Shown here: one piece after another, positions 1-55,494 of the stretch
Position numbering within the stretch: the stretch's first letter is position 1
Layout of the letters: every line of letters begins with the position of its first letter
Assembly (NCBI GenBank): GCA_965153355.1
Contig: OZ231126.1
Coordinates: 30,256,001 to 30,320,000 of the forward strand
Length of the DNA: 64,000 bases
Source of the DNA: Flaccisagitta enflata
Lineage: Eukaryota
Reading direction: 5' to 3'
Translations under genes and position numbers: made by a program
The notes under the pieces: model-generated
Told to the model about the DNA's origin: nothing
What the model saw: the letters and a program-made list of their open reading frames with translations, nothing else
Database searches by the model: none

Positions 1-2995
1 AAAATCAATGAGCAACTTCCCATTATAATCCTATGAGGGGGAAAAGCAAAAATTTCAATTTTTTTTTTTTTTTTAGCTATGATCACCAAAACATTAAGAA
101 CATTTTTTTTAGCAATTATTACTCTTTAGTGATGGTCTATTTCATGACTGGTTTCATATAGTAACAGACTAAATTGAAAACCCTAAAACAATTTGTTTCT
201 TTTTTTTATGTAAAGGTAGTTTCAGAAGATATTCACAACTGAAGATTTTGCTGATCCATATTTGCCTTACGGGCCCGGGCCTAGCCTCTCGGCTACTCCT
301 AAACTTGGTGCCATATTCAGCCATTTTTAGTGATAATAGATATTCTTGTAATAATCACTTAGAGTTAACTCACATTTGTTAAGAGGGCCTTGAACAAAAA
401 CACTTTTGGGCCTAGTAGTACTGTACCCTGGGTACAGCATGTAAATTTAAAAAATGAAAAATATTCTATGTTTGTGTTCAATCATAATAAATATGACTCA
501 ACTCCTTAGTGCCCATATAAATGGCCAAAATGAGTGGTAAGGCTATTTTAACAATTTTGACCAAAAATGCCAAAATCCTCCAACATTGGCTCTACCACCC
601 ATTTTTGGTCCTTTATATGGGCACTAAGGAGTTGAGGTCCCATATTTTTTATTCTTGAATATAAAAAGCACAAACATAGAAGAATACTAACTTTTTTTTC
701 AAAATTTCTATACTTCAGGTACTCCCGGCACTTAGCACTTCCTAGGGGTAAAACCTGTGAATGATTTTTTTGGTTCAATTTTTCCTAATAGATTCTTTGG
801 GCTAATACAAGAAGATTGACACCAAGATTGTCCTTTTACTATAAAAAATAGCTGAGATATAGCTTTTCAAAGTTCTGGGGGTACCCGGGGGGTCCAAAAT
901 TTCAAGCCCCCCTAAAACCCAAAATATGGGTCCGAGAGCGAAAATCTTTGGGATTCTTGAATATCTCCCCGAGGGCTACCTTTACACCAAAAATGAGCAA
1001 ATTCTATTTTTTTAGGGTTTTCAGTTTGGGTGATCTGTCATGAAACCACCCTATAATGGTACAACTCGCCAATTTGGAGTAATAGCACCTTGCTATATTA
1101 CCAACTCTCAGAAAGAGGATTCTAGATAAGCTCTGTTGTAAATTTTCCTCTTTAAGCCACGTTCTGTTGATATATTGTTTACAATTCAAACCTATTCTTT
1201 TTGACAGTAGATAAAAAGAATGTGCATTGATAAAATTCCCTTTCATTTGATATGTTGCACTATATGGTTTTGATTGAAAATTGAATTTTCATATTCTAGG
1301 CCACCTATGTAATTGTTAATAATAAAGGTGGCTAATCGCCGTAGGAAAAAGAGTGAATGCTGAGAAAAAGAGTTATGACGCCGGGATTGCGGACAGGGCA
1401 TCTAACTCCCCCATCCACATCCTAACCCCACACACAAGCATCTAGACCGCTTGTTTTTCGACTTTTCCACTTGGACGGACAGACGGACCGACAGAGCAAT
1501 AGATGGACTGACAGACTGACGGACAATGCCTTTCATAGAGTCCAGAGTCAAAATGAGAGAAAGACTGCACTGCCAGGATGCTCAATCATAACCATTTCAA
1601 AGTTCAAATAGCCTTCAACTAACTTGATTCCTTGTTTTTGGGATAAATGCAAAAAATGCGAAAAAACATAAAAAGATTTATAAAATCATAGCTCCAAAAC
1701 TATCAATCGCACAGAATTCTGCTGGCGTCATCTGAAAGAGGAGTTCATTAGCTCTTTCTAGCTATCAATTTCATGCAGAGTACCATTTGGACCCAAAGCT
1801 TATCAATCTCTCAAACGCTTTTCATGGAAAAAAAGGAAACTTTTCTTCGCGGAAATCAAAAAGTCTTCGAATCTTCGAATCTTGACTTTTTTCCAAATAA
1901 TGGTGGCTTAAGAAATGAAAATGTTATTTCTTTTTAAAACCCTATAGTGCGACCTATCAAATGAAAGAAAATTAGATCAGGATTAACAATATGCTGTCAA
2001 AAAATAAGTTAGACCAACCTGCAAAATTATTAATGTAAAATGAAGCTTAATATAATGAATTTCTGTAGTCGCTTCATATTTGTATGTGTGGATATTGATC
2101 GATATCGATATCCGGTAGTAGCTCCTTTGGCACAGTCGAAATTGCTCAATCGACAAAACAAAAGAGCAGGCCAACCATGCCAATCCATGCAATGCTCGCT
2201 CGTAATGCCATCTTTTGATCGCTACTCGAACCTACCGGTCGATTAGCTCCGAATATTTTCCAAATATTACTAAAAATAAGTAATTTCATCGCCTTAACGG
2301 ACTTCATACACTGTCACGATTGTTACAAGTGGTCCGTATCTTTCCTCGGTCAAGTTCCCTCACGCAGGGCCTTCCTGTGGACGGGAATCTGGTTCCACGT
2401 CCGTTTCAAGCAACCGAGTCAATTTTAACAGCAACTGACGTCATAACAAGATGGCTGCCTCCTGCTGTTTTCAAGGATAAGTTTCCTTCTCATTTTTGAA
2501 TCTCGTCTTCGCCCGGCTAAACTGAATGGCAAGTCAAAGTCCCCGCGTCCTGCGCCTCTACAATGGTCGCCAATTGCCGCTGACTTCTCCTTCGCGCTTC
2601 TCCGTACCCATGCCGGGTCCATCTGTCCATGCGGATCAAGGCCCGCCGAAGTCCGTCGCAATCATTCTACAACGTCCTACGCTGCTGCGAGAGTCGCCGG
2701 TTGCCTCCCCTTCTCCTTCGCGCTTCTCCGCACCCTTGCCGGGTTCCTCTGTCCATACAGATCAAGGCCCCGCTCTTCTGCCGCCTCCGTCCCCCCAGCC
2801 CATAGGGTTACGATGGCGACGATTCAGAAGAAGAATGCTTATCTTCTGCAGCAGCAGCTTCTCCAGCAGCAGCAGCTTTCTTCAGGATGCAGCAGGAGTG
2901 AAACTCGTATTTTCATCAAAGGTTAAATTGAGCAGGGTTGGATGTAATGATTGATTGATTGATTTTTGTCTCATATCGGACCTTGGTGGAATTTC

Positions 2996-3077
2996 ATCCA
3001 CACATACAAATATGAAGCGACTACAGAATAAATATTTCTTCCTGAAATGTTTTTCTTAGTCGCGGAGTATTTGTATG
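2996..3077. other. Internal complementary region (ICR) of the DIRS-like element
   Basis: 2996-3028 is the exact reverse complement of 2061-2093. 3025-3069 is the exact reverse complement of 7560-7604. The two halves overlap at AGAA (TTCT on the other strand). Confidence 0.9.
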
Positions 3078-4683
3078 GCCCTCCATCCATCCCCATCTCC
3101 ATCCCTTTTTGGTTCTCATATGATTCATCATTTCTCAATTATTAATCCATTCTTTCCCTTTCTCTCTTTTTCCTTTTCATGTACGACTCCCTTCGCCTTC
3201 ATCCTCGCTGCGTCGCTGCTGCTGCTGCTGCTATGGGGTGGCTTACCATTATACCCTACCTCAAGCTCGCAGGGTGACCTTTAAGGCTGCACCAGGGGCG
3301 CCCCCCCCTCTTCCTGGCGTCCATCCCTGATGGCGCTGCCACCTCCACTGCCACTGCGCACGCTGGAGGGGGCACAGGAAGATGTGAGTAGATCACTCCT
3401 AACTTGGTTTCGGCCAACATGGTGGGTCTTGGTATAATGGGCATACTAGAAGAGGCCTTTGATATTTTCTCATTCCTCTGTGTATGCTGTCATGAGTGAT
3501 TGTCAGAGTAGAAGACGAGTTTCATCAGGCCAAGTCACTCTGTTTTTTGCTCATGGCTGATTGCCTTCTGAGTCACTGGGTGGCTCAGGATTATGGAGGT
3601 AACTGCATGGCGAAGAAGCCGGAGGCGCCGAGGAAGATTCGGCGCCGCCGGAGGACGCCTTCACAAGTCTCCTAGGAGTCATGTCGGTGTCCGGGTCGCA
3701 TCATTCGCCGTCGAGGGCCTCATTCGATTTCGGCGCTGCCATTTTGTCCACGAGGAGAAAAATGCTACTCATGCGCCATTGGAGAAGCCGCCGTCATACG
3801 TGCATAGTCTCTATTCGGCATAGCGCCTATTCGGCATAGCGCAAAGTCGACAAAGTTCCTCCGGAATGCTTTGCCATCTGCCATGCATGCACAAGCTAGC
3901 GCCGCTTTTATTTTTGCGACGGTATGGTCCTTGGAGGTTGCCTCTCCGCAATTTGGTGTTTCCATTCATCATGGACAATGCACCAAAGATCAATGCGTAA
4001 GAAGTTGTTTACGCTCTACGCATACTTTTCAGCCTTCAGAAAAGTTATCGCTCTTTCAGGTCGGCTGCTCCACTACTTCTATTGCCAATTGAAGTTTCAG
4101 GTAAAAATCTGTCATTCAATTGTTTTTGATTCTCAACTTGTAGAGAAGTCGCCAGCAATGAGAAGTTTATTTACATATTATGGTTTGACCATCCTCTTTG
4201 AGTAGACGCTGGTGGTCATTCGCAAGGCTGTTAGCCTTGCCATCGCCATATACTCCTAGTCTTCATTGGCGATTACCAAAAGTGGAACAAGGCACTGTTT
4301 CTTATGGCATCCAATTATTGTTAAAATTTTTCAAAAGCTGGATGCATAAATAACCCTATTACAGCTGTTTTGTAAGAAAGACATCTTTCTCCTCCTCCTC
4401 CTGCATTGGCGGTACATTCGTCAGGTCCTGAATGTTATTCAGGTCCTGATGTGAGTGGTCGAGGAGGTGTATATCGCCCTTGTTTACTTGCTCTAGTTTC
4501 GGCCTTCTGCCTCATATCATTAACCCCTTCCTTCCTGACTCCGCTTCATGCCATCATCATCGAGGTTTCTGACGATCTTTAGCATGGGCCTGTAGCGATA
4601 GTCCTTCTAGAATTTGCTGAGTCCATTGAAGGCAGACATTTTTATGCGAAGTTTGAAGTATTCTACATAATCTCTGTAAGAGA

Positions 4684-4920
4684 TTGCGTAAGTTTCATAT
4701 GATCGTTGATCAGGTCTATTTTGGAAAATCAAAATTTACCTTTTCGCATATTTTATTTTATAGTTTCTACGACTTAAGAATTCCTCATCGTTTTGGGAAA
4801 TTTTTGCTGTTTCACCATTTCCCGGAACTATCATATCGCGCCCCTTCTAAAACTAAGTTTTGTGGTGCTAACGTTAGCCTCGCCTCTCGTGTCATTGTAT
4901 GGGTTTATTTCATTGGTTGA
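4684..4920 (+). pseudogene. Degenerate DIRS-type reverse transcriptase fragment
   Basis: KFHMIVDQV...YSFYDLRIPHRFGKFLLF...NVSLASRVI resembles the DIRS RT pattern KFxM...DAYYHVPIHP..RKFLxF...FGLSxAPRVF. No intact YxDD seen; flanked by stops. Confidence 0.5.
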
Positions 4921-5719
4921 ATTTAACCCTTCTTGTACCTCAAAGCCTCTTTGATTGTATTGACATTTGACCAGGGCCAGACGACGAACGTAGCCTTAGA
5001 TGTGTAAATGACTTTTTTAGGGTACCATCGTTTTTTACTGAGTGAATTCCAGATTCCTTGTTGCTTTTTTCTTCATTTTATGGATCAAAAAAATAACTAC
5101 CCGAAATTTCTTTGGTCAGTTTCTAGTCTTTAATTACAAATTGTTCGCGATGGTTGTGAGTCATAGTGCTATGAAAAAAGTAGGGAAGTGTCGATTGACC
5201 ATTCTGTGCATCAGGTTGGTTGAACAACAAAATGCTCTGTTAATGGAAGTTATGATGATTGCTAATGAATATTCTTTTCTTTCCTAGTTGACCTGTTCGA
5301 CCTCACTTTTTTCCAACTCCTATAACCGGAAGAATTGATTTTACTACAGATTCTTTTTAGTTAAACATGGTTCTGTGGGAATCAGGGGAGGAACCAATTC
5401 TTCCGGCAGTTTAGGTACCCTGCGTACCCCCCCTGGACCAGGGCCGGTTTCCGTCATTCCTGTTTTTCTTTTTGATTCAAATCTTGAATGGACGGTATTA
5501 TTATTATTTTCCTTAGGAAAAGATTAATTTGACTGAGTCAGGTCTATCTCTTGCCTTATGATAATCCTGTCCAAGATTTTAGCCCTTGGGTGCTCATTTT
5601 ATCAATCCCTATTATTTCTAGGTCTTGATTGCGTATCCGCCCCAATTTGTTTTAGGTTGGATTGTGGTCAGGAAGATGTTTTCATTTCGCATCTTCTTGG
5701 ACGGTATTTGTTGATGAGC

Positions 5720-5965
5720 GCTATGTGCCCCCACCCTCTAGGGTGGATCCTATGGGCTAAAATTTGTTTTATTGAGTTGGTTCTTTCAGAAACATCTTCA
5801 ATGGGCCTTCTGCCCATCTTTTCTCCGTCTAACGCTTCTTTTCCCCCCTAACTCTTTTAGGTTGGGAGTTTCTGCAAGATGTCTTTTACATCTTCAGACG
5901 GTATTCGTCATTGGCAGCTGGGCTAACCGCCTCTTTTGGCGGTTCTACTTAAATTTTCATCCTTT
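5720..5965 (+). pseudogene. Degenerate tyrosine recombinase C-terminal fragment
   Basis: MCPHPL (cf. LCPVRAL) followed in another frame by PNSFRLGVSA...GSWANRLFWRFYL, resembling the HxxR...GxW...FxRFY box of DIRS recombinases (His codon CAC could have become AAC). Confidence 0.55.
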
Positions 5966-7672
5966 TAACAATTTCTCACAGAAATTCCCAAAAGATGGAT
6001 GGGCATCTCCCATTGTGGATGCCATTTTTAGCTGAGTATCCCCTCCCTCTGAGCGGATCCTGCCGTTTTAAAATTTTAGTCCTTTTTGATCGATTCTTGC
6101 AGAAATTTTCTCGATTGGGATAGGCTTTTTCCCCTAGGGGAATGCCCCTTCAAGCTGTAGGCCACCTTTGGATGGCTCCTGCTTCATACTATCATAATCA
6201 TTTCGATTGTTTTTTTCACAGGGAATCTTCGTCGTAATTGACAATATTCCTTTGATGCCCCCCTTCTAAGCAATGTGCCTTTTTTCAGGTGGCATCAGTT
6301 TGCTTCTGTCATAATCATTTTGATTGTTCCTCTCAGGAGATCTTAGAAGTTAATGGATATCGTTCCATTAAGGTTCCCTTAAGAATCTAAGCTTATTCTG
6401 TTTGTCATATTCTTGACCTTGTTCATGACCATTAGTTCATGGACGATCTGTTGTTGAACTACTGTTGTTTCTCATTAGTTGTAACACATTTTCCCCACTG
6501 CCTTACCTCTCTCAGATCCAAGACAGTGGCCTCCCTTTCTTAGCCTCCTCTCTTTTCAGGAGTTGTGTGCAAAAAGTATGGCTTTAACATTCTACTTCCT
6601 TCCCTTACATGTATGTAGAATGTAATGTAAATATTATGGTTAATATTTTTTCCGGCTCTTAGCCCTTTGAGATCATGAGCCTCGAAGGTTGTACTTCTCC
6701 TTTTCTTGGGAAAAGAAAGAGGGGGGGTGTTGGTTTGGGAATCGCTCTCCATCTCTCCCTCCCGCGGGTGACTTTTGCCCTGTCCTTTCATAATAATTTA
6801 GATTATTTCTCAAAGGAGTCTTCGTTGTAAATGGAATTCGCTCCATTTTGACTTGTAAATCGGTCAGACCTGTTCCCTTTGGTCTTTCCTTTGTGTTTTA
6901 TTTTTGCGCCGCCAGATAAATTATGACTATTTCTCAGGTTACCGCCCTGGAAAGACTGCTCATTAGGCGGAGTGGATTGGTCTCATTCCTCCCTCCATCA
7001 TGTTTTTTTCCCTTTTATTCTTTGTAAGAGATACTCTTCAGGTTATCGTATATCTCTCCTTCCCATATGTATAACATATGGGGGGGGGGGGTTTCCCATT
7101 GGATTATTTATTGCCTAAAGCATAATCCTTAGCTCATTTTCCTTTCTCCTCTCTCAGAGATATTGAAAATGTCCACCCTTCATCCTTTTGCCTGTAAGCT
7201 TTTAACAGGTGCTGTTCTTGCGATCATGCCATGCTAGTCTTACGGACGTGTTTCGCGCTTCCTTTCGTTGCGCGGACATTACAGCGCCGCCGGTTTCGAC
7301 ACATCCCATATTGGTTGCGGTCGCATTCGCGCGCAGCGCCTTCATGTAGATATTCTCCATGCTGACTGAGCGTGCGCTCGCTCGTTTTTCCGGCACTATT
7401 GCCGTCAGCTTCGTGGTGATCTTCTCGATGGCATTACAAGCGAGCATTGCATGGATTGGCACGGTTGGCCTGCTCTTTTGTTTTGTCGATTGAGCAATTC
7501 GACTGTGCCAAAGGAGCTACTACCGGATATCGATGTCGATCAATATCCACACATACAATTACTCCGCGACTAAGAAAAACATTTCAGGAAGAAATATTTA
7601 TTCTCAAGACGGTGTGCTCGTGACTTTTTCCATCATTCAGTCAATAAAAGTTTCCATATATCTTTCACTCAG

Positions 7673-9071
7673 TCCCGCGCGATCCCGACTTGCCCTCGGC
7701 GGAAGCGGCCAAGAAGCAGAAGGAAGAGCAACGGAAAATCGACGAAGCGGAAGTCCTCAATGACGAGGAGGCCGAGGAGAAGGAGCAACTCCTCACGCAA
7801 GGATTCACCAACTGGAACAAACGCGACTTCAATCAGTTTATCAAAGCCAACGAAAAATGGGGCAGGGATGATATCGACAACATCTCACAGGTATAACTAG
7901 GTGGAGTAATAGTTCTCTTTAGGCAAACTGAACTATACGAAGACGTTATGGAAGCCCATTTCAGCCTAAGACTAGATTTAAGGCACTGTGTCGCATGCGA
8001 GAAGGTAGCGGACTATGAGTTTGGTCAGTGATGAAAAGAAAACGCCGGACATGGACTACACACCAAAGTCTGACCGACGGAGCAACCATCTGAGAATCCT
8101 GCCTACACCTTTTTGCCTTTCAGGATGTGGAAGGGAAGACGCCGGAAGAAGTGATGGAATACAGTTCGGTGTTTTGGGATCGTTGCAACGAGTTAACAGA
8201 CTACGACAAAATCATGGCTCAAATCGAACGCGGAGAGGCCAAGATTCAACGAAGGATCTCCATTAAGAAAGCCCTCGACGCGAAGATGGCCAGATATCGA
8301 GCCCCCTTCCACCAATTGAGACTACAATACGGCACCAACAAGGGCAAGAACTACACCGAAGAGGAAGACCGGTGAGAGAATTTTACCTTCTTTTACATTG
8401 ATACGATTACAATTAGGCTCCACTACTAGGTGCATGTTAGGTATTGAGCAATGAGGCCGGATACACGGCAATCCAGTCGCGGACGGTTGGGCCGGAGCAG
8501 TAATGCAATTGCAATTCAAAAATGTTATGGAAGGACAGACGGATGGACCAAGGTGTAGAGTTACGTGTCCGCGACTGAAAACATGCCTCATAGTGAAGCT
8601 GCCTAACTGCCAATATAGAGATTGCTGCAAAGTAGTAGGTTGTATGCCTTATAGGCGGGCATGTCCTGTTAGCGGGAGCGCTCTAGCGGTGGTCCACTGA
8701 ATCTAAATTTACTAAATTGATAAAATTTTATATTACGCTTGCACTGACACATGCCGTAGAATGTGTATTTTAGAAGTTGGAAATCTACCACGATAATGTC
8801 CCTAAGAATCTTTGCTTTCGTTTCAGATTTTTGGTATGCATGCTGTGGAAGTTGGGATTTGACAAGGAGAATGTCTATGACGAGCTTCGCACGGCATGCC
8901 GACAGGCGCCACAATTCCGCTTCGATTGGTTCCTCAAGTCAAGAACTGCCCTTGAGCTGCAGGTGAGTCGCGTCGCTGGTTTCTCACTGATTTCGTGTGA
9001 AATCATTCATCATCGCAAATTGTCATCTCTATCAATCGGTTTCTAGCCTACTTCGTTTGATACGCTTACCC

Positions 9072-12487: not shown

Positions 12488-15400
12488 ACACACACACAAA
12501 CAAAGACTGAATGGTAGATTGGCAAGTGGGTTGGTAGAGGCAAGCAGATAACCGATTGATGGCGGTTTCTAAGATGCAAAATCGTCTATCGATTAGTAAG
12601 ACAAAATTGTCATCCGATTGTATTTTTCGATTAACTCGCGAGGCTCTAGTGGGCATGCTATCTCCATCTATATTCTCCCATACCCATGCTTATTCACACA
12701 CACACAGATAATCATAACTGCAGGATCAGAAATGCGCGTTTCCCCACTTATCGACTTGATTATCACGGACGGACGAACAGACAAAGTCTCTTATCCGTTC
12801 AAACTACCGCCAGGTGGTTTTCAGTATTACTCTGGATTTTCCGCTTGTTTACACTCAATATGGACCTCCTGAACAAGAATCCAGCTTCAAAAAAATCGTT
12901 CTTGTGGCGCCCTTTGAAAAAAATCCAAAATTGATTATTTTTTCTCTTATTTTAAAGTCAGAATTTTTAAGGCTGATGGAAGATCTTTTTAGCTAGCGTA
13001 TCTGAATTCCTGATAAAATTTCCTTTCATTTGATAGGTCGCACTATATATTTTTGAAAAGAAATAAAATTTTTAATTTCTAAGCCACCGTTACAAAAAGT
13101 AACGGTGGCTAAAAAATCGAAAATTTGATCTCTTTTGAAAATTAAAAAGTGCGACCTATCAAACGAATGGAAATTTCATCAGGAATTCAAATATGCTATT
13201 TAAAAAGGTTTTCTAACAACCCTCTAAAATCTGGGTGCATTAGAGGATGAAAAATTATCAATTTTGGATTTTTTTCAAAAAGCGCCACAAGAAAGATTTC
13301 TTTGAAGCTTGATCCTAGTTCAGGAAGTCCATCCTGAGTAAATACAAGCGGAAAATTCAGAGTAATACTAAAAACCACCTGGCGGTAGTTTGGACGGATG
13401 GTGTATAGATGTGTGTCCGCAACTAAATTTGAAATTCAAGATTGGCATAATTTTCTTTTTCTCTTGGCATAATTTTCTTTTTCTCTTGGCTTCTGCATTC
13501 CTTGTTCGCATGCTCAGTTGTTATGTTACAGTACACGCACTTGACCGAGTAACAACCTTCTTTATAACAACGTTGAGGCTCAAAATGTCAAAAAAATAAG
13601 AACATTTGTAGCAACATCGTCAGCCTCAGAAAATAAAAAATGTAACAACATTTCAGCCTTATGTCCAACCAATAATAACTTTTCTCTTAGATTCGCTATA
13701 ATTTCTGTTGCATTCAATTGTAACATGCGGCGGTTATTAAGATGGGGTGGCTTTTTCTTTTGTATTTTAGTTATAACAACACTTTGTTCCTTATTTTGAA
13801 TGGTTGTTCTCCTTTATTTCATTCCTACCCTAGATCCCTTTCATTCCAGAGAAAGCAGCGAAAGGAATGGAAGTACAGACATTCTAATCAATCGTTACAT
13901 TAGAAGATTGATGAGGAAAAAATAACAACAGTTTAGCGACGGTTTGAGCCTCATATCGTCATTCAAATAACAACATTGAGCCTCAGAAAAAAATAACCCG
14001 TTGTTACTCAGTCAAGTGCGTGTACACTCCGAACAAACCCGACTAAAACTGGAGGATACATTTTTAGATGCGTCCGTCAGGAACGCATCTCTATAAGAGG
14101 GTCTGTCCGTCCGTCCGTCGGTCCGTCCGTCCGTATGTCCGTCGGTCCGTCCGTCCGTATGTCCGTTCCGTTGCAAAAACCGCGTTTCTCGGCTGTTTTT
14201 GGCCACTGTGAGATCCTATAGGCTATACTGAAACAAATGATCAACCAACATGTTTTGAGAGCCTTCTTTACCACTTAGTCGTTTCACCCGTCTGTTCGTC
14301 CATATGTCTCCATATATGTCAAACGATCAATACACGCAGAGACACACGGCCCGGACGCATCGTTGCCCGGTCGGGCTTGTTATTACCTTAATTTTATTTC
14401 CCAAGCTTCATTTTTGGTGTCTTGGCTAATTAAAGGACGATTAATTTCTTGAACATATTTGGCGGTTAAAAGACCTAACTCATCACACCAATAATTTATA
14501 AAAGCGGCTGATCGCCGGTCGGCGTAGGAAAAAAAGAAAGAAAGACAGAAAGAAAGACAGAAAGAAAGACAGAAAGAAAGACAGAAAGAAAGACAGAAAG
14601 AAAGACAGAAAGAAAGACAGAAAGAAAGAAAGAAAGAAAGACAGAAAGAAAGACAGAAAGAAAGACAGAAAGAAAGACAGAAAGAAAGACAGAAAGAAAG
14701 AAAGAAAGAAAGACAGAAAGAAAGACAGAAAGAAAGACAGAAAGAAAGACAGAAAGAAAGACAGAAAGAAAGACAGAAAGAAAGACAGAAAGAAAGACAG
14801 AAAGAAAGACATGAGCAAGCAGGATAAAAGGTACTGTTTTCGAAGTCGGTGATGTCTTTTGTTTTACTGACTTTCTAAGCGGTTTTTTTAGATGCGTCCG
14901 TCAGGAACGCATCTCTATAAGAGGGTATGTCCGTCCGTCGGTCGGTCCGTCGGTCGGTCGGTCGGTCCGTCACGCCTGTGCTAAAACCGCGTTTCTCGGC
15001 TGTTTTTGGCCACAGTGATATTGTACACTGAAACAAATGTTTAACCAACATGTTTTGAGAGTCTTTTCACCCGTCTGTTTGTCCATCTGTCTCTCCATAC
15101 ATATGTCACATGATCAATATACGCTGAAACACAGCCCGGACGCATCGTTGCCCGGTCGGGCTTGTTATTTAGGGTTTGGGATAGGGTTAAGGTTGGTGTT
15201 GGGGGTGGTTTTAGGGTTAGGGTTAGGGCTAGCATTAGGGCTAGGTGAGGGCTGGGTTTTATACATTCCAACCCGAATCTACTCGAATTAAAGCTTCGCC
15301 CAAGCGGGAAAACCCGAACGAAACAAAAGATCTGTACCGTCTTGGAAATCTTTTCCGGATAATAAGCTAGCGTCATAAAAGTCAGTCAATATGCGTAACA

Positions 15401-25100: not shown

Positions 25101-25584
25101 GGGCAGCGGCCCCGAAGGAGCCGATGACCTATGCTGTTTTTATTTGAGCCTGGAGGCTGGAATTGGGGCCTTGAAGCTGGAATTTGAGCTTAGAGGCGGG
25201 GATTTGAGCCTTGTGGCTGAGATTTGAGCCTCGAGGCTGGGATTTGAGCCTCGAGATTGGGATTTGAGCCTCAAGGCTGGGATTTGGGCCTTGAGGCTGG
25301 CATTTGTGCCTCGAGGCTGGGATTTGAGACTTGAGGCTGGGATTTGGGCCTCGAGGCTGGGATTTGGGCCTCGAGGCTGGGATTTGGGCCTCGAGGCTGG
25401 GATTTGGGCCTTGAGGCTGAGATTTGGGCAACGAGGTTGAGATTTGGGCCACGAGGCTAGGATTTGAGCCTCAAGGCTGGGATTTGGGTCGAGGCTGAGC
25501 GGGGTGAGTATGGAGAAGAAGAAAGAAGGAGAAATTTCTCGCATGTGAAAGCATAAGTCATCAGCCCCTTCGGGGCCGCTGCCC
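25101..25584. mobile_element. TIR element carrying an internal 20-bp minisatellite; degenerate relative at about 29110-29700
   Basis: GGGCAGCGGCCCCGAAGGAGCCGATGACCTATGC inverted at 25551-25584, enclosing about 17 copies of GGGATTTGGGCCTCGAGGCT. Confidence 0.75.
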
Positions 25585-27684: not shown

Positions 27685-30502
27685 AAACAATACTAACAGA
27701 CTGACTGACATCAACAAGTGACATGGGGTCACAATATTGTTGCGGACAGGTGGGCACACCCAATGCCCCACCCAACCCACTTTCCCACACACACATACAC
27801 AGAAAGCTCGTTTTCCCACTTTTTGACTTGATCACCTCTACAGACCAACAGATAGACCAATGGACGGATGGACAAAGCCTCTTATAGATTTGCGTGTCGG
27901 CAACTAAAAAACAGAGATAAACATACAGATCATGACACAAACATGATAGAATTCTTTTTTTTCATTTAAAGGCATAGGTCATCCTTTTGACCATGGTGTC
28001 AAGAATGCCAGTAAATCTGTATAGGAATAGAAGGATTTTTCTCTGCTTGGCAGCGCTTGAAACAAAGGTCATATAGCAAACTCAAGAAATGTTGTAACAA
28101 GAACAAGTAGACCAATAAGGTGGATCGTAAAACATTTACCAACCAACAGACAGACAGACACAGCTGGTTAAAGAGGTGTTTTGGCACACCTAAAAAGTGC
28201 AAGAAACCTATGCACTTCCATTTCATAGAAGGGACTTAGATGATTATCAAGCACAATGCATCTGATCAACCCTAACATGGGGAGCAGATGCAGAGTAAAA
28301 ATCACTGAAAAAAACGAAAAACGGTGGTGGCAAAAGAAAATCCCTGAAAATCGGTGGTGATTGAAAACCAGAGTCACTCTCAACTCTACTCTCAAGGCAT
28401 AAACCTGTCCTCACTGATTCAAAGCCTGAGAGGGTAGATTTCAAGCCTGAAAGGGCAGATTTCAGGCTTGAGAGGGCTTGGGGGTATGGATAGACGGATG
28501 GACGGACGGACGAGTGAACGACCAAAAGTGCCCCTGTGTTCAACAGGACTTCGTCTCTTTTGGGGCCGCTTCCCTGCTTCCTCTCACAATCATGCAAAGC
28601 AGGGCAACGGCCAACGGGTATCGTTGACCACACATAATATGAGTTTTTATGAGATTTAAACATTTTTTGCGATTTTTCACTCTACAACAAACCAAACGAC
28701 GGACCGACGGACCCGCTTCTTAAGATCTAACCGTACTTGAATACCAGTAATGGCAGCTGTTGCCGTGGGGAAAAAATTCGCAAGCGTTGGTCATTTTTCA
28801 CCAAGCTTTCGTCTTCAGTCACTGCAATTTTTTTCAAATCAAAAACAATTGTATGTATTGAGTTCATTGAAAATCAAAGGAAAATAGGACTGAGTCAGAA
28901 TGAGCTAGATGAACTAAAATACTCAAAATCACTGAACAAGATAACCAGCTAAGCTCAATGACATGCTTTCTTGTAATTGCAAGCTTACATCAAACCATTC
29001 ATTTATCTATCCAGTTTAAGATCAGAAAAAAAAAGACAGCTAAATGAGCTTAATGAGCTGAAAACTAAAAACACCCCAAGAGGAGGCAGCTCTGCACACT
29101 GACATGCTTTTTGGGCAGCAGCTGAAGAAGGAGCAAGTAATATCTTCACACAGGACAATTTCTCCTCCTTCTTCTTCTCAAATCCATCACCCCCTTTAGG
29201 CTCCATCATCCTAGCCTTGAGGCTCAAATCCCACTGAGGCCCAGATTCTCGACTCAGGCTGATTGTGACTCAGGCCAAATCCTGGCCTCAAGGGCTCAAA
29301 CTCCTGCCTTGATGTAAGCCCCACAGCCTTATGCCTCAAATCCCAGCCTAATGCTCAAATCCCAGCCTCCAGGCCTCAAATCCCAACCTCGATGCTCAAA
29401 TCCCAGGGTCTTGGCTTTAATTATAGCATCTTGGCTCAAACCACAGTCTTGAGGCTCAAATCACCGTCTTGAGGCTCAAATGACCCCCTTGAGGCTTAAA
29501 TCACCATCTCAAGGCTCAAATCACCACCTTGAGAATCAAATCACTGCCTCGAGGCTCACATCACAGCCTCAAGGCTCATCTTAAAGCCTCATGGCTCAAA
29601 TCCCATTTTTGATGCTAAAATTCAAGCCTAGAGTTTCAAAACTTACTAAGCATAGGTCAGCGGCCCCCCTTCACACACCCACATATACTCACTAAGGGGC
29701 AACGTATTAAAAATCATCCCATTAAAAATCAGAAAGAAAGATTGAGCTAAATGAGCTATTTGAGCTAGAATACTGAAAAACACCCTCACAGATGAGGAGC
29801 TACGCTCATAAACATGTTTTTTGTATTTCTATGCTCAAACAAACATCTATATACTTCTTTATTGCTTGGCACCAAATGAAAGAAAATTATCAAATTTACT
29901 AATTTCGTCCAAGGGTGCAATCAGCCGGATGAGAAAATGAAAACCTTGTTTTTCTCGAATATGACTGTCTTTTTTCCCGATGAAATTGAATGAAATGACG
30001 AGTATTATAAATGATGCTCGGGATAAGATTTCATGAGATTTTAAACATTTTCTGCGATTTTTCAACGAACCGACCAACAGACCGATGGACTAGCTTTATC
30101 AAACCTATCCTTAGCTGAATATGATTATGAATGAAACGACGAGAAACATGAGAGTTGTACAACATGAGTTTCTAAGATATTTTTGACATTTTCTGCGATT
30201 TTTGATTCGAGCGCAGGTGGGTGGAGTGGGATAAAGTGGCGTTAGGTGTTTTTTTTCCATCAGGGTGGATTTGATGGACTGTGGAGCGTGACCGATCAAC
30301 CGACCGATATACCGACAGACAGAGCCTCTCATAGAGATGCTATGGCTCACCTAAAAAGGTTAGAAAATGAGGGATCGGCAGCAGTCCAGCGTCGTGAAAG
30401 GTGGCAGCAACAATCCATCAGACTAATGGGCTAATGGCAACTATGGAGAACGAGGAAAACGCAGACAACGAGAAAAAGAGAGACCTCTGCTCCCAAGAAA
30501 GT

Positions 30503-32549: not shown

Positions 32550-32699
<150 letters not shown>

Positions 32700-32763
32700 C
32701 TTTTATCTTATTCATATTTTTCCCCACAGCATTGATTAAACCTGAGGTAATATTTCGACCTCG

Positions 32764-33329
32764 CCCTTGGCTCCACTTTCCGTGCCTTGCCATGTTTTGC
32801 CCTTGGCTCCACTTCCCCTATCTTGCCATGTTTTACCCATGGCTCCTCTTCCCCTGCCTTGCCATGTTTTGCCCTTGGACACACTTCCCCTACCTTGCCA
32901 TGTTTTGCCCTTGGCTCCACTTTCCGTGCCTTGCCATGTTTTACCCTTGGCTCCACTTTCCGTGCCTTGCCATGTTTTGCCCTTGGCTCCACTTCCCCCG
33001 TCTTGCCATGTTTTACCCACGGCTCCACTTCCCCTGCCTTGCCATGTTTTGCCCTTGGCTCCACTTCCCCTGCCTTGCCATGTTTTGCCCTTGGCTCCAC
33101 TTTCCGTGCCTTGCCATGTTTTACCCTTGGCTCCACTTTCCGTGCCTTGCCATGTTTTGCCCTTGGCTCCACTTCCCCTGTCTTGCCATGTTTTACCCAT
33201 GGCTCCACTTCTCCTGCCTTGCCATGTTTTGCCCTTGGCTCCACTTCCCCTGCCTTGCCATGTTTTGCCCTTGGCTCCACTTTCCGTGCCTTGCCATGTT
33301 TTACCCTTGGCTCCACTTTCCGTGCCTTG
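32764..33329. repeat. 36-bp minisatellite (about 15.5 copies) with 180-bp higher-order period
   Basis: Unit CCCTTGGCTCCACTTTCCGTGCCTTGCCATGTTTTG; variant order recurs at 32941, 33121 and 33301. Confidence 0.95.
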
Positions 33330-33761
33330 TCACACCATACCTGTTCTTTTACTTCCTGTGCACATGTTCACCTTCTCACCCACCCACGCACCTGTCCAAC
33401 TATCCACCCAACTGTCCACCTATCACCCTCATGCCCACCAACCCTCGTGTTCACCTTCAACCCACCCAGTTGTCCGCCACCCCACATTATAAGACACGTG
33501 CAGCAGCTACCGAATACCTGCTTATCCCAAACTGTCGTTTTACTTTAGATGCTTGTCTTCCTCACACCTGCTTTTGTAATAAATTAATTTCAAATCTTTC
33601 AAGAAGCTTTCCCTTCCTCATCAAAACTTATCTTCTTCTGGACAAATTTGGAAGCTACACAGATACGTTTGCGCTACTCCATCGCCAGTATGTACTGTAT
33701 AGTTGAACAATGCAAAAGGGGATGTCAAAGGACCAAAAGTTTTACAGAAGAGGGGTTGATA

Positions 33762-35341: not shown

Positions 35342-38300
35342 TTGACTTGATAGGCATATCGTCCCCGATGAGGACCTGCCTCACCGATCGGGGCAGGCTT
35401 CGCGTTTGTGGCGTGCTAGGTTCGTACTCGCCATTTCCACGCCGCAAGAGCACACACACCTCTTCCCCTTATACACTCGCGGCCTTCTTTCTGCCGCTTC
35501 TTCTCCCGCCGCAATGGCCCTCATACACTTCTTTCTATGTCTTGCGATGTAAGATTTGGAGAATTCTCTCCCGCACGCGCATACTCTTCTGTCCGTCTGA
35601 CTAGCTGCAGCGCCACCACATATTTTCATGTGGTTGAGTTTGTTTGCCTCTTGTTGGAAGCTCGACCCGCAAGCTTCGCACGCGAAAGTCTTCTTTCTGC
35701 TCGAGACCTCGTGCATCCGTCTTCTATGCACAGTGAGGCCCCCCTTCGACTTACACCGCTTCCCACACACTCCACACACAAATTCCACCATGGTGCCAAC
35801 CCTCACATTTCTTTCCACTTCTTCCCCGTTCCACTGATGTCCTCTGCTTCTTTCCCATTTTTCCAGATGGCTCATTCTTTCTTTGACTAAGCTTTTCCAC
35901 TTCTTCCTATCACTCGTCACTCCCGCCAAATTGGTCCAGTCAATTCCCGCTTCCTTAAGCAACTTCTTCCAATAGCAGACAGTCTTCCTTTTTCTTCCCT
36001 TTGGCTTCTCCCACTTCTCCAGTTCTCCCATCCATCCAAGTATCACTGCTTTCGTCATTCGACTATCCTCCATCCTCATGACGTGGCCAATTCTTTCCAG
36101 GACCCGCTTTTCTATTTTCCATCTCAAAGATCTGACTCCTAACTCCCTCCTTACGTCCTCCATATTTTTGTGCTCCTTCTGCATCTGTATAAGCGGCGGC
36201 CCCGTCTTCCTACTCCATATGTATCTGTAGCAGCGATCCACCATCTTCTGTAATTGCTTTATTTCCTTCACATACCACACCCTGACGGCGCAATCGAAGA
36301 GCAGGCCGCTCTCCACACACGCCTCCACTACCCTCGCCTGCATCTTCTTCTTCATCTTTGATCCCACTAGTCGCGGTCTCACTTTAGCCCAAGCTCCTCT
36401 TGCTCTTTTTAATCTTGCTTTAATGTCCTCTTGCCACCCCATCCAGCAGCCCAACATCCTTATTTCTCCGCTTTCTTCGCTGCCAAATTTCAGTCTTTCT
36501 TCTTTGTCGTCGTTGTTTTTCTCCTCGAATTGGCTCATCACTTTCTTTACTATTTCCACTCCTTCCTCTAATTCTTCTTCATCTCCTACTGCCGTCGTAT
36601 CGTCGGCGAATAGAGAGAGGTCTACCCATACTTCCACTGCTTCTGAGTGCTCCTTTTCCCACAACCTACTTCCTGGCAATGCACTTCCTGGCACCCACTT
36701 CACACAAATTCCTACCTCCTTTCCTTTCTCCTCTGCTGCCATCTTCCGCTCCACCTTCGCCACCCTCATCACTGCTTGATGGAAAATGTTGAAGAGAATA
36801 GGCGACGATGGGCATCCTTCCCTCAATCCTCTTTCTGGCACCCATGGCTCGGAATCTCCCTCCTTTCCTCTGATTGCATACTCCGTCGTTTCATGCAAGT
36901 CCATAATCACCCTCAGAAACACTCCATCTAATCCATAACGCCGCAGCAATCTCCACAACGCCGGTTTGTTCACCCGCGGATACGCTTTACGGAGATCCAA
37001 AAGCCTAGCCGCCGGTTTCAATCCCTCTCCTTCCTCTCCCCTCCTCTTCTCCAAATCCTCCGCATCTTCCTGCAACCTCATCATCACTTGCGTCGCATCC
37101 GCCGTCGCTCTTCCACTCCTAAAACCCGCCTGATTGTCGTCCATCAATCCCATCGCCTCCGCCCACTCCTTCAATCTGCATGCCACAATCCGAGCTACAA
37201 TTCTGCTACCCATAGACAATAGACAGACACCCCTATAGTTATTAGGATCGTCCCTGTCTCCTTTATTTTTGTATAAAGGGACTACTTGACCAGAACGTAG
37301 GCTACTCTCCCACTTCTCCGCTCCATTCTCCCACATGAATTGGACGATTCTCACCACCTCTTGCATCACCGGCTCTCCACCCTTTCTCAAATAACAAAGA
37401 CGGACGCCATCCTCCCCCGGCGCCGCATCCTTCATCTTCCCCATTTCGCGCTCTATCTCTGCTCTATCCGGCGGTCTCCCCAACCGCTCCCTCCACCCCA
37501 CCGTCCTCTCATCCTCCCTCAGATCCACCGCCTTGTCCACCACCCTCTCCAGCTCCTCCGGAACATTCTCGAACCTCTCCTCTGACACTCGCATGAAATG
37601 ACCCCTGAACTCCTCCTTCGTCAGCGTCGTCTCCCCTTTCACCTTCTTGACCCCTCTTCCTCCAAGGGTCCTCAGACTCTTATACATCCCTCCCGTGTCT
37701 CCTCTTTCCGCCGCGTTCTCACATCTATTCAACTCTCCTTCCCACCATTCTTTCTCCCAGTTCGACAGCTCCCTCTTCCACTCCTTTCTTGCTTCTCTCA
37801 GCTCTTCTTTCGCCTCCTCCTCCTCCTCCTCTCCCTCTGCTCCGTTCCTCCTCTCCAAACATTGGCTAATTCTCCCTTTCAGTCTCTGCACTTCCTCTTC
37901 CTTCCCCATCATCCAGGGATTCTCAATCGACTTCTCCTTTTCACCGCACACTTCCTTCGCCGCTTCCAACACCACTTCCTGCAGCTTCATCCATCCCGTC
38001 TCTTCTTGACTCGGCTCTTCCTGCCTCTCCCTCATTTTGCTCTCCACACTCTCCTGATATCTCTTCTCCACTTCCTCGTTCTTTAGCTTCTCCCATTGGA
38101 TCATTGGTTTTCTTTTCCGCTCATACACCCTCCTCCACTTTTTCTTCTTTGCAATATCCAAAACCATTTTCTTCGGCTTATGGTCGCTGATAACATTTTC
38201 ACCCACCGTTTTTACCTTCTTGACGTACTTGTGCCTCTCTTCCGCTCTCATAATGAACCCATCCAACTCATACCATAAACCATTGAAATTTGATCTCCAT

Positions 38301-39375
38301 GTACCTCGCCACCTTTCGCTGAAGAAGCCATTAACCCAACATAAGCCATTTTCTTCACACCACTCCTTTAAAGCCTGACCTTGTGCGTTAGATGATCGCA
38401 GACCGAAACACCCACACACACTACCTCTCTGCTCACCTCCCCCTATATGCGCGTTGAGATCACCGCCGACGACCAACGTTTCTTTCTTCTCTGCCCATCT
38501 CACATGCTCCATCAGCTTCTCCCTTTCACCCTCTATCTCTTCCTCCCTGCCGTGAGTCCACACCGGCATATACGTCGCCACCATCACCCAGTCACCCACT
38601 TTCACCGACACATGTCTCTCATCCCACTTCTTCCTCTGTCCTCCCTCGCACCACCTCTTCAAAGCTTCCCCACGCAGCATCACCCCTGCTTTCTCCGCAT
38701 GCACAACCACCACCAATTTCTCTGCTTGCCCTAACCACACTACTCCTTTCCCGCTTGCCCTCAGCTCACTTAGCAACACAACATCCCATCCACTCTTCTC
38801 CGCGTAGCTAACCACCATCCTCAGCTTCCTCCTCCTCAAACTCTCTACCGACATCCCCTGCACATTCCACGTCGCCACCACCATCTCCTCTTTCGACGTC
38901 ACACCCCTCGCCATCTCCTCCTTTCTCCTCCTCTCTTTTTCTTCCCTCCTCGCGATCCTCCTCTTCTTCCTTCTTTCCCTCCTGCTCTTCCTCCTGACTT
39001 CCGCTCGAGGCCCGGGGTTTGGATGGATGGTTGTTAATGCCATCCTCACCTCGGCTCTTCTTCTTCTCTCTTCATCCACAGCCAGTGGCCAAAACGATGA
39101 TGGAATTGAGTTTGGTTGTCCTGACCACCAGCTGCGACGCGAAGCTGCCCTCCTCGGGCTAAAGCCTACAATTTGTTTTAGGAGGTGAGAAAGACGGCCG
39201 GGCTCTCCCCACTCCGTTGCCCAAAAAACGGACCCCACTTCCATTCTTTCGAACTTTGTTGAATCCTCGTTTCCTGAGCCTCCCGTTCCGCTTTGCCACG
39301 CTTTCCTCCACTTCTGCTTTCGCTTCTGTTTTGGTCCGCGTGCCCACTGGCACCCCAGGAAGGTGTAAGAACGTG

Positions 39376-39405
<30 letters not shown>
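35342..39405 (-). mobile_element. Apparently intact RTE-type non-LTR retrotransposon
   Basis: Single long ORF, short 3' end with (TCAAG)2 tail, 5' (CTGG)n tract, and 27-bp direct repeat GTCATTATCGTCATCTTCCATGTCACC at 35315-35341 and 39406-39432. Confidence 0.93.
35381..39244 (-). CDS. APE endonuclease + reverse transcriptase + C-terminal zinc-finger polyprotein (1287 aa)
   Basis: Endonuclease motifs ATWNVQG, LSELR, GDLNAHIG, SDHKP. RT motifs NYRGVCLLS, QAGFRSGR, DLRKAYPRV, GLREGCPSSPILFNIF, FADDT. C2H2 finger CGVCGKRCKSKGGLTVHRRRMH. No stops. Confidence 0.96.
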   Translation of the reverse strand: MEVGSVFWATEWGEPGRLSHLLKQIVGFSPRRAASRRSWWSGQPNSIPSSFWPLAVDEERRRRAEVRMALTTIHPNPGPRAEVRRKSRRERRKKRRIARREEKERRRKEEMARGVTSKEEMVVATWNVQGMSVESLRRRKLRMVVSYAEKSGWDVVLLSELRASGKGVVWLGQAEKLVVVVHAEKAGVMLRGEALKRWCEGGQRKKWDERHVSVKVGDWVMVATYMPVWTHGREEEIEGEREKLMEHVRWAEKKETLVVGGDLNAHIGGGEQRGSVCGCFGLRSSNAQGQALKEWCEENGLCWVNGFFSERWRGTWRSNFNGLWYELDGFIMRAEERHKYVKKVKTVGENVISDHKPKKMVLDIAKKKKWRRVYERKRKPMIQWEKLKNEEVEKRYQESVESKMRERQEEPSQEETGWMKLQEVVLEAAKEVCGEKEKSIENPWMMGKEEEVQRLKGRISQCLERRNGAEGEEEEEEAKEELREARKEWKRELSNWEKEWWEGELNRCENAAERGDTGGMYKSLRTLGGRGVKKVKGETTLTKEEFRGHFMRVSEERFENVPEELERVVDKAVDLREDERTVGWRERLGRPPDRAEIEREMGKMKDAAPGEDGVRLCYLRKGGEPVMQEVVRIVQFMWENGAEKWESSLRSGQVVPLYKNKGDRDDPNNYRGVCLLSMGSRIVARIVACRLKEWAEAMGLMDDNQAGFRSGRATADATQVMMRLQEDAEDLEKRRGEEGEGLKPAARLLDLRKAYPRVNKPALWRLLRRYGLDGVFLRVIMDLHETTEYAIRGKEGDSEPWVPERGLREGCPSSPILFNIFHQAVMRVAKVERKMAAEEKGKEVGICVKWVPGSALPGSRLWEKEHSEAVEVWVDLSLFADDTTAVGDEEELEEGVEIVKKVMSQFEEKNNDDKEERLKFGSEESGEIRMLGCWMGWQEDIKARLKRARGAWAKVRPRLVGSKMKKKMQARVVEACVESGLLFDCAVRVWYVKEIKQLQKMVDRCYRYIWSRKTGPPLIQMQKEHKNMEDVRRELGVRSLRWKIEKRVLERIGHVMRMEDSRMTKAVILGWMGELEKWEKPKGRKRKTVCYWKKLLKEAGIDWTNLAGVTSDRKKWKSLVKERMSHLEKWERSRGHQWNGEEVERNVRVGTMVEFVCGVCGKRCKSKGGLTVHRRRMHEVSSRKKTFACEACGSSFQQEANKLNHMKICGGAAASQTDRRVCACGREFSKSYIARHRKKCMRAIAAGEEAAERRPRVYKGKRCVCSCGVEMASTNLARHKREACPDR

Positions 39406-39409
<4 letters not shown>

Positions 39410-52512: not shown

Positions 52513-55411
<2,899 letters not shown>

Positions 55412-55494
55412 CTGAATTTTTTATTTCATTTTGTAGGAGGAGGGCAAACATTGATAAGCGATCGGGGGCGGAAAGAGGTGTTGGTATGAGAGAG

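Follow-up and report, generated by a model that had tools for sequence, protein, structure and literature searches.

Positions 2061–7604 of a 64,000-nt stretch of Flaccisagitta enflata DNA (contig OZ231126.1 of assembly GCA_965153355.1; this whole stretch is referred to as the window) hold a mobile element which is probably a non-autonomous, protein-less DIRS1-like retrotransposon. Elements of this type move by a tyrosine recombinase (YR) and are recognised by inverted terminal repeats (ITRs) together with an internal complementary region (ICR). The element measures ~5.04 kb without a nested insertion, is located within an intron of an animal ISWI gene and would be mobilised in trans. It keeps cis-acting parts only, namely two ITRs, a terminal extension and the ICR. 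This identification draws on the architecture of the element, its lack of coding, several diverged copies and a second insertion site with the same boundary.

A preliminary description of the element had reached a DIRS-type identity, which is supported here down to fine structure by the ITRs, ICR halves, extension and TTCT core. It had further proposed a 5' ICR upstream of reverse transcriptase (RT) and recombinase remnants, possibly in an undescribed lineage. The non-canonical position of the ICR stands, but its placement relative to coding rested on remnants that do not exist. The undescribed lineage is likewise unsupported; the element is most simply read as a protein-less derivative, in which the inner layout can vary freely.

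Termini, internal complementary region and lack of coding

Self-BLAST of the element aligns 2061–2212 with 7576–7427 as ITRs over 152 nt at 93.4% identity (E 2e-60), confirming the repeats of the preliminary description. Pairwise alignment shows three substitutions and one indel in the 133 nt of the conserved part (2080–2212), while the outer 14 nt (2066–2079) contain five mismatches between the left and right ITR. ITRs with imperfect outer ends of this kind are expected of DIRS1-like elements.

The ICR spans 82 nt (2996–3077) and is the reverse complement of the junction between the right and left ends. One half is complementary to 2061–2093 at all 33 positions (E 1.5e-11) and the other to 7552–7604 at 52 of 53 (E 9e-21), giving 85 identities in 86 positions against both termini combined. 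The overlap of the two halves is AGAA, which is complementary to the TTCT found at 2061–2064 and 7601–7604. An internal region that is inverse-complementary to both ends and has overlapping halves is a defining trait of DIRS1-like elements. An exact internal copy of the junction had been placed at 2996–3069; the reverse-complement copy is real, but it continues to 3077 and is one mismatch short of exact.

The right end carries an extension of 28–32 nt (7573–7604), which is matched by ICR positions 3025–3056 only and has no partner at the left end, where just TTCTG lies outside the ITR. Unique extensions had been described for the ends of the element, and this holds for the right end and not for the left. 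At least one terminal extension complementary to the ICR alone is expected of DIRS1-like elements, as is the pattern of a TTCT core at both borders, present once in the ICR as AGAA, with no true target duplication. No empty site of the element was seen. A four-way alignment of the left terminus, the reversed right terminus and the two ICR halves shows that each ITR tracks its own ICR half in the outer, divergent part, where 5 of 14 positions differ between the ITRs, and that TAGTCGC and TTGTATG motifs are common to both termini and both halves. This fine structure fits the description of DIRS1-like elements, in which an ICR-constrained outer ITR part is joined to a conserved inner part, an extension matches the ICR only, and the ICR halves overlap on the terminal oligonucleotide (PMC3266345; this and the other published accounts are cited for the portions covered here).

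Folding of the entire ICR yields a single long hairpin (−34.6 kcal/mol, z −7.6, none of 200 shuffles as good), and the predicted circle junction, of which it is the complement, would fold as a long hairpin as well. As a result of the inverted ITR ends and the self-complementary extension, the junction has two mirrored cores, AGAA at 7573–7576 and TTCT at 7601–7604. A hairpin of the extension itself pairs the terminal UUCU with the AGAA beside the ITR, although this fold is weak (−3.3 kcal/mol, z −0.5).

Where the element departs from the DIRS1-like plan is in the position of the ICR, which would be expected beside the right ITR at the 3' end of the inner region. Instead it starts 935 bp from the left end, in line with the ~930 bp given previously, and lies 783 bp from the extension-less ITR and 4,349 bp from the extension-bearing one, so that it abuts neither in either orientation. 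No further copies of the element occur in the window at E ≤ 1e-3.

The element encodes nothing recognisable. An RT-like remnant at 4684–4920 and a YR-like remnant at 5720–5965 had been described on the plus strand; both are absent, as there is no Pfam domain in six frames and no period-3 signal. The Pfam search covered all six frames of 2061–7604, with stops written as X and a threshold of E ≤ 10, and returned no family in five of the six frames and only Dehydrin (E 2.6) in the sixth. There are 56 stop-to-stop frames of at least 50 codons, the longest of 159 codons, and their lengths are as chance predicts. Period-3 power across the element is 0.8–2.8, inside the range of shuffles. The gag, RT/RNase H, methyltransferase and YR open reading frames (ORFs) of DIRS1-like elements were thus not found, nor was coding found on the minus strand, an outcome which the preliminary description had named as one that would overturn its orientation. 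As a positive control, the ORF of a long interspersed nuclear element (LINE) at 35384–39406 on the minus strand was recovered by Pfam (RVT_1, 1.1e-16) and had a period-3 power of 25.9, with 0 of 200 shuffles as high. With no Pfam family, no long frame and no period-3 signal, the element is a non-autonomous derivative and not an autonomous member of its group. Scans of 1–9000 for structured RNAs gave nothing but a chance RNase P match in Rfam (E 0.054), and no transfer RNA was found there.

Two open frames were considered and rejected as genes. The first, of 81 codons, opens at an ATG within the right ITR; it is 86 codons long in most outside variants and its period-3 signal is marginal (6 of 200 shuffles as high). 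It belongs to a cluster of 31 sequence variants, found on ENA and Logan contigs that reach 5,508 bp in length, a sample skewed towards intact frames, and identity is 91–99% among the 15 variants listed. Against 1.84 billion representative proteins it had one match, its own copy at 96%, and it was rejected as a gag remnant on that account. Since it has no relatives elsewhere and the sample favours intact frames, it shows a family of elements and is probably not a gene. The second, a 142-codon frame at 2526, is closed after 18 codons by a 1-nt deletion at 2541 in the contigs of all three DNA runs described below.

Other copies and competing explanations

Part of the window is matched by 11 of the 18 public runs listed, from six studies comprising marine metagenomes and one organism, A. 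Four runs were compared with positions 1–9000, three of DNA (X1, X3, X5) and one polyA run (X18). In all three DNA runs, depth over 12 inner bins that contain no ITR, ICR or nested repeat is ~3.2–3.4 times that of the single-copy flank, a ratio of our own arithmetic in which depth is not a copy number. Outside contigs are colinear with 2194–7445, differ from it by 1–7% and are without the nested 467 bp. One run of organism A contains a contig without differences as well as a second one that, over 5483–5849, differs at 27 of 367 nt. The element is therefore a member of a low-copy family with diverged copies. The near-identity of the ICR and the termini (85/86) suggests that the family is young.

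The same contigs reveal the nested insertion. Those of X3, X1 and X5 join 4968 to 5436 and skip 4969–5435, and the skipped 467 bp has a depth of ~40,000, against about 500 and against ~160 for the single-copy flank. It is flanked by the 10-nt target duplication GACCAGGGCC. These three observations indicate that the insertion is private to this copy. The repeat has no second copy in the window and no obvious terminal repeats or tail.

A frame running out over the right terminus (7494–7760) matched P0017, which lies on an outside contig of 3,580 bp. As far as the TTCT, P0017 agrees with the ITR, the right-type outer part and the extension (7428–7604) at 93% identity over 59 residues; it then continues for 64 residues without a match in the window. 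It thus marks a second insertion site with the same TTCT boundary. Several copies at different sites are expected of a retroelement mobilised in trans and are found here, with just one second site recovered.

The RNA intermediate, the trans-acting helpers and the sense strand are the parts of the account that we infer, the mechanism being drawn from the DIRS-1 model and experiments (PMC7192593). The element would be transcribed from one ITR, and RT supplied in trans by an autonomous DIRS1-like element would yield single-stranded complementary DNA. The ICR may then act as a template or splint on which both termini are rebuilt and joined, giving a near-palindromic circle junction. A YR, also supplied in trans, would cross the TTCT of this junction with a genomic TTCT, and such recombination would account for TTCT on both sides with no true target duplication.

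Several points weigh against a protein-less element mobilised in trans. Only one second flank was recovered, and two frame searches across the left terminus for more flanks gave no candidates. ITR words of 22 and 20 nt had no matches each in metagenome contigs, an ITR 20-mer had none in viral contigs, and P0003 found no match in viral contigs. These ITR-word scans revealed no autonomous partner with matching termini, and mobilisation in trans is accordingly presumed. None of the listed runs with a match to the window is of RNA, and no RNA reads fell on the element in ~6% of the polyA run X18; neither result is evidence either way. A truncated DIRS-1 element did not complete retrotransposition in the published experiments (PMC7192593). 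The length of ~5 kb is that of an autonomous element and odd for a deletion derivative; autonomous DIRS1-like elements average 5160 bp (PMC3266345). Finally, P0017 joins the 783-bp spacer between left ITR and ICR, here called region X, to a right-type terminus, contrary to the layout of the window.

The length could also suit an autonomous element in decay, from an undescribed lineage and with remnants of RT and recombinase on the plus strand downstream of a 5' ICR, as ~5 kb is typical of autonomous DIRS1-like elements (PMC3266345). This is highly improbable. No domain occurs in any frame, period-3 is lacking and the frames are of chance-like length. Furthermore, with the ICR still matching the termini at 85 of 86 positions and copies only 1–7% apart, there would have been no time for coding to decay beyond recognition. 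That the element is a DNA transposon whose long terminal inverted repeats are flanked by a 4-bp target duplication of TTCT is scarcely credible. While 150-bp inverted repeats with TTCT on both sides would agree with it, 28 nt separate the end of the right repeat from the right TTCT, so that the repeats do not reach both ends. In addition, cut-and-paste transposition has no use for an 82-nt internal copy of the joined ends, and the six-frame Pfam search found no transposase.

The conflict with P0017 raises the alternative that the layout seen in the window is an artefact or a private rearrangement, in which the inner segment of this copy was inverted, either during assembly or by recombination between the ITRs, and in the family region X truly lies beside the extension-bearing ITR. 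P0017 speaks for this, as its first 32 residues are identical at 32 of 32 positions to region X on the minus strand (2307→2212), followed by the ITR and then a right-type end with extension, whereas region X adjoins the left ITR in the window. This alternative is nevertheless unlikely. Such an inversion would leave the ICR as a direct copy of the junction, against the defining feature of the family, which is retained here at 85 of 86 positions. A short-read contig can jump between ITRs through shared words, the repeat-rich 64-kb window is assembled without an N, and the contigs of three runs are colinear with 2194–3077. For the same reason an ITR-to-ITR inversion of this copy was rejected, since it would turn the ICR into a direct copy of the ends; internal inversion, which the preliminary description had named as a refuting outcome, did not occur, as the ICR remains inverse-complementary to both termini. 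P0017 may represent a chimeric contig crossing the ITRs or an inversion isomer produced by ITR-to-ITR recombination. Since the ICR complements both ends in the layout of the window, this layout is taken as the transposition-competent one.

Sense strand and position of the ICR

The lack of recognisable coding means that coding cannot fix the orientation of the protein-less element, and the odds for the two strands are about even. Two further cues were discarded. Poly(A) signals are uninformative on both strands, as the sole AATAAA on the plus strand lies inside the ICR with none near the right end, and the 1.8 kb at the minus 3' end contain neither AATAAA nor ATTAAA. Flipping the element leaves the order of the ICR halves unchanged, and only the sizes of the halves differ.

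If the plus strand is the sense strand, which is a tentative reading, the ICR is 5'-proximal, starting 935 bp from the left end, and is followed by a non-coding cargo of 3.9 kb that extends to the right ITR. The termini argue for this orientation. The extension would be on the right only, as in all 20 animal elements with annotated termini (PMC3266345 Table 3), and the left ICR half would be shorter than the right (33 versus 53 nt), as in the animal pattern. The terminal oligonucleotide would be T-rich, TTCT here compared with NTT in 23 of 28 elements (PMC3266345), and the pairing of UUCU with AGAA in the extension resembles the 3' hairpin noted for DIRS-1 (PMC7192593), despite its weak predicted stability. 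The termini have to suit the enzymes of the helper, while no such constraint applies to the inner layout of a derivative without proteins. Conversely, the DIRS literature covered places the ICR throughout at the 3' end, close to the right repeat. The plus strand is also pyrimidine-rich (T 35%, A 20% over 3,882 inner nt, with region X alike), whereas the only coding retroelement of the window has a purine-rich sense strand. The poly(A) signals likewise do not favour this orientation.

The opposite orientation, with the minus strand as sense, is similarly tentative. The ICR would then be 3', separated from its ITR by a 783-bp spacer, and the extension would be on the left, as in AcasDIRS1 and AmDIRS1. 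In this orientation the element would be antisense to its host gene, which is the usual bias of intronic elements. It would agree with the 3' ICR of all described elements and with a purine-rich sense strand like that of the LINE, and the 81–86-codon frame opens at an ITR ATG on the minus strand. Left-extension-only elements are known with ICR halves of 52–36, compared with 53–33 here (PMC3266345 Table 3). However, such elements number just 2 of the 27 with annotated termini, an amoebozoan and a fungal one, and none of the 20 from animals (PMC3266345). The termini would start with AGA and end with GAA, an A-rich type found in 2 of 28 elements, and the ICR and ITR overlap slightly in Xenopus families but are 783 bp apart here. 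The ITR-born frame has no relative in 1.84 billion representatives except its own copies, and the minus 3' end lacks a poly(A) signal as noted.

The termini are the more trustworthy cue because they must fit the enzymes of the helper, while the argument from composition spans the whole element. Either way the element is unusual: it combines a right extension with a 5' ICR, or else it is the first animal left-extension-only element with a long spacer. A bolder proposal, which we consider doubtful, is that it is a natural protein-less DIRS1-like parasite of a marine animal with a 5'-side ICR in an otherwise canonical right-extension element, possibly existing as two inversion isomers. A 5'-side ICR would mean that the ICR works wherever it is placed in the transcript. 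If inversion isomers exist, only the isomer found in the window would replicate, so that recombination between the ITRs would flip the element on or off.

Genomic context and comparison with known DIRS elements

Features of the element are collected in Table 1. Its right flank (7648–7896 on the plus strand, and downstream) contains an exon of an ISWI (SMARCA5-like) gene covering the HAND/SLIDE region, with a HAND domain at E 3.4e-06. The element is intronic, ~65 bp upstream of the 3' splice site of this exon. Compared with solved chains, the exon matches 2nog ('ISWI protein', 5.5e-34), 8v4y (a SWI/SNF-related SMARCA-family chain, 5.2e-33), 1ofc ('ISWI PROTEIN', 4.2e-27) and yeast ISW1 (1.5e-07). 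We take the first three to be the Xenopus, human (SNF2h) and Drosophila proteins, respectively. As the exon is nearer to the animal chains than to yeast ISW1, the gene is considered metazoan.

Table 1. Coordinates of the element and its parts within the window
Feature	Position	Strand	Remarks
TTCT core, left border	2061–2064		Common to right border; as AGAA in the overlap of the ICR halves
Left terminus/ITR	2065–2212		Outer part 2066–2079 matches ICR exactly; conserved part 2080–2212
Region X, 783-bp non-coding spacer from left ITR to ICR	2213–2995		Direct repeat 2546–2644 / 2673–2770, 81%
ICR half, complement of first 33 nt of left terminus	2996–3028		33/33
ICR half, complement of last 53 nt of right terminus	3025–3077		52/53
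Inner non-coding segment, part one	3078–4978		T-rich on plus strand; 36 nt at 3879–3914 missing from other copies
Nested 467-bp high-copy repeat insertion, private to this copy	4979–5445		10-nt duplication GACCAGGGCC at 4969–4978 / 5436–5445
Inner non-coding segment, part two	5446–7426		Weak ~117-nt repeats at 6189, 6306 and 6785
81-codon open frame, ATG within right ITR, reads inward	7205–7447	−	Probably no gene
Right ITR	7427–7572
Terminal extension	7573–7604		Only ICR matches; self-complementary; ends in TTCT 7601–7604; mirrored AGAA 7573–7576

The left flank consists of high-copy repeats. In the flanks at 601–2060 and 8454–8508, bin depths reach up to 460,000 and 1.8 million, compared with ~160. 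Positions 1898–2041 of the left flank resemble the arms of a large palindrome at 12793–13399 (76%), whose 301-nt arms are 82% complementary and 5 nt apart. The palindrome is related to the left-flank repeats and is possibly a foldback or a repeat similar to miniature inverted-repeat transposable elements.

Further away, the LINE ORF at 35384–39406 on the minus strand is an intact non-long-terminal-repeat ORF of 1,341 codons with endonuclease/exonuclease/phosphatase, RVT_1 (1.1e-16) and C2H2 zinc finger domains; its period-3 signal is strong and its sense strand rich in purines. A 970-codon open frame at 52516–55425, also on the minus strand, has no Pfam family but a very strong period-3 power of 84, compared with 1.7 for shuffled sequence. 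The frame contains many simple acidic and proline repeats, and its period-3 signal may for this reason reflect trinucleotide repeats and not a gene. Tandem repeats include a 36-bp minisatellite of at least 14 units (32691–33440) and a 20-bp minisatellite (25102–25541) with an inverted partner array ~4 kb away (29370–29640, ~270 nt, 71–72% complementary). Many tetranucleotide and dinucleotide microsatellites occur throughout the window.

Protein-less elements of this kind would escape existing surveys of DIRS elements, which are built on protein domains. ReDoSt requires RT, methyltransferase and YR together (PMC3266345), and a survey of fungal DIRS elements required at least one domain (PMC3783388). 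Searches of the open-access full-text literature, which does not take in Repbase, gave TOC1 as the sole named non-autonomous element of the DIRS order, and neither a protein-less ITR/ICR-type element nor an ICR away from the right ITR was found; earlier descriptions may exist. A natural, mobile protein-less family would show that the full DIRS cycle of reverse transcription, ICR-guided end repair and recombination can act in trans, which the DIRS-1 experiments, in the portions covered, could not show (PMC7192593). The displaced ICR would make its usual place beside the right ITR a habit of coding elements and not a mechanistic requirement. Annotators could find such elements by structure alone, searching for ITRs together with an inner copy of the joined ends.

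The closest counterparts are animal DIRS1-like elements such as DpuDIRS3, GaDIRS1 and XtDIRS3 (Piednoel et al. 2011, PMC3266345 Table 3). These share an ITR with a divergent and a conserved part (14 + 133 nt here), one ~30-nt extension matched by the ICR only, overlapping ICR halves (33 + 53 nt here), a length of ~5 kb and no target duplication beyond the shared core. Unlike them, the present element is without gag, RT/RNase H, methyltransferase and recombinase, its ICR lies 4.35 kb from the extension-bearing ITR, and its core is the 4-nt TTCT where theirs is of 3 nt, mostly ATT. If the minus strand is sense, the element would instead resemble AcasDIRS1 of Acanthamoeba and AmDIRS1 of Allomyces (PMC3266345), with a 5' extension, ICR halves of 53–33 compared with 52–36, and an ICR towards the extension-less right ITR. 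Those elements differ in being autonomous and in having amoebozoan and fungal hosts, whereas the present host is an animal.

TOC1 is found in Chlamydomonas, a green-alga host unlike the present one. It has split direct repeats in a PAT-like layout and not ITRs with an ICR. It has been called a non-autonomous DIRS retrotransposon and is likewise protein-less, with a copy number that varies between strains (PMC9940879). The present element looks like a natural counterpart of the engineered DIRS-1 constructs (PMC7192593). In contrast to the truncated construct, which did not finish retrotransposition, the second insertion site suggests that in this family the full cycle works.

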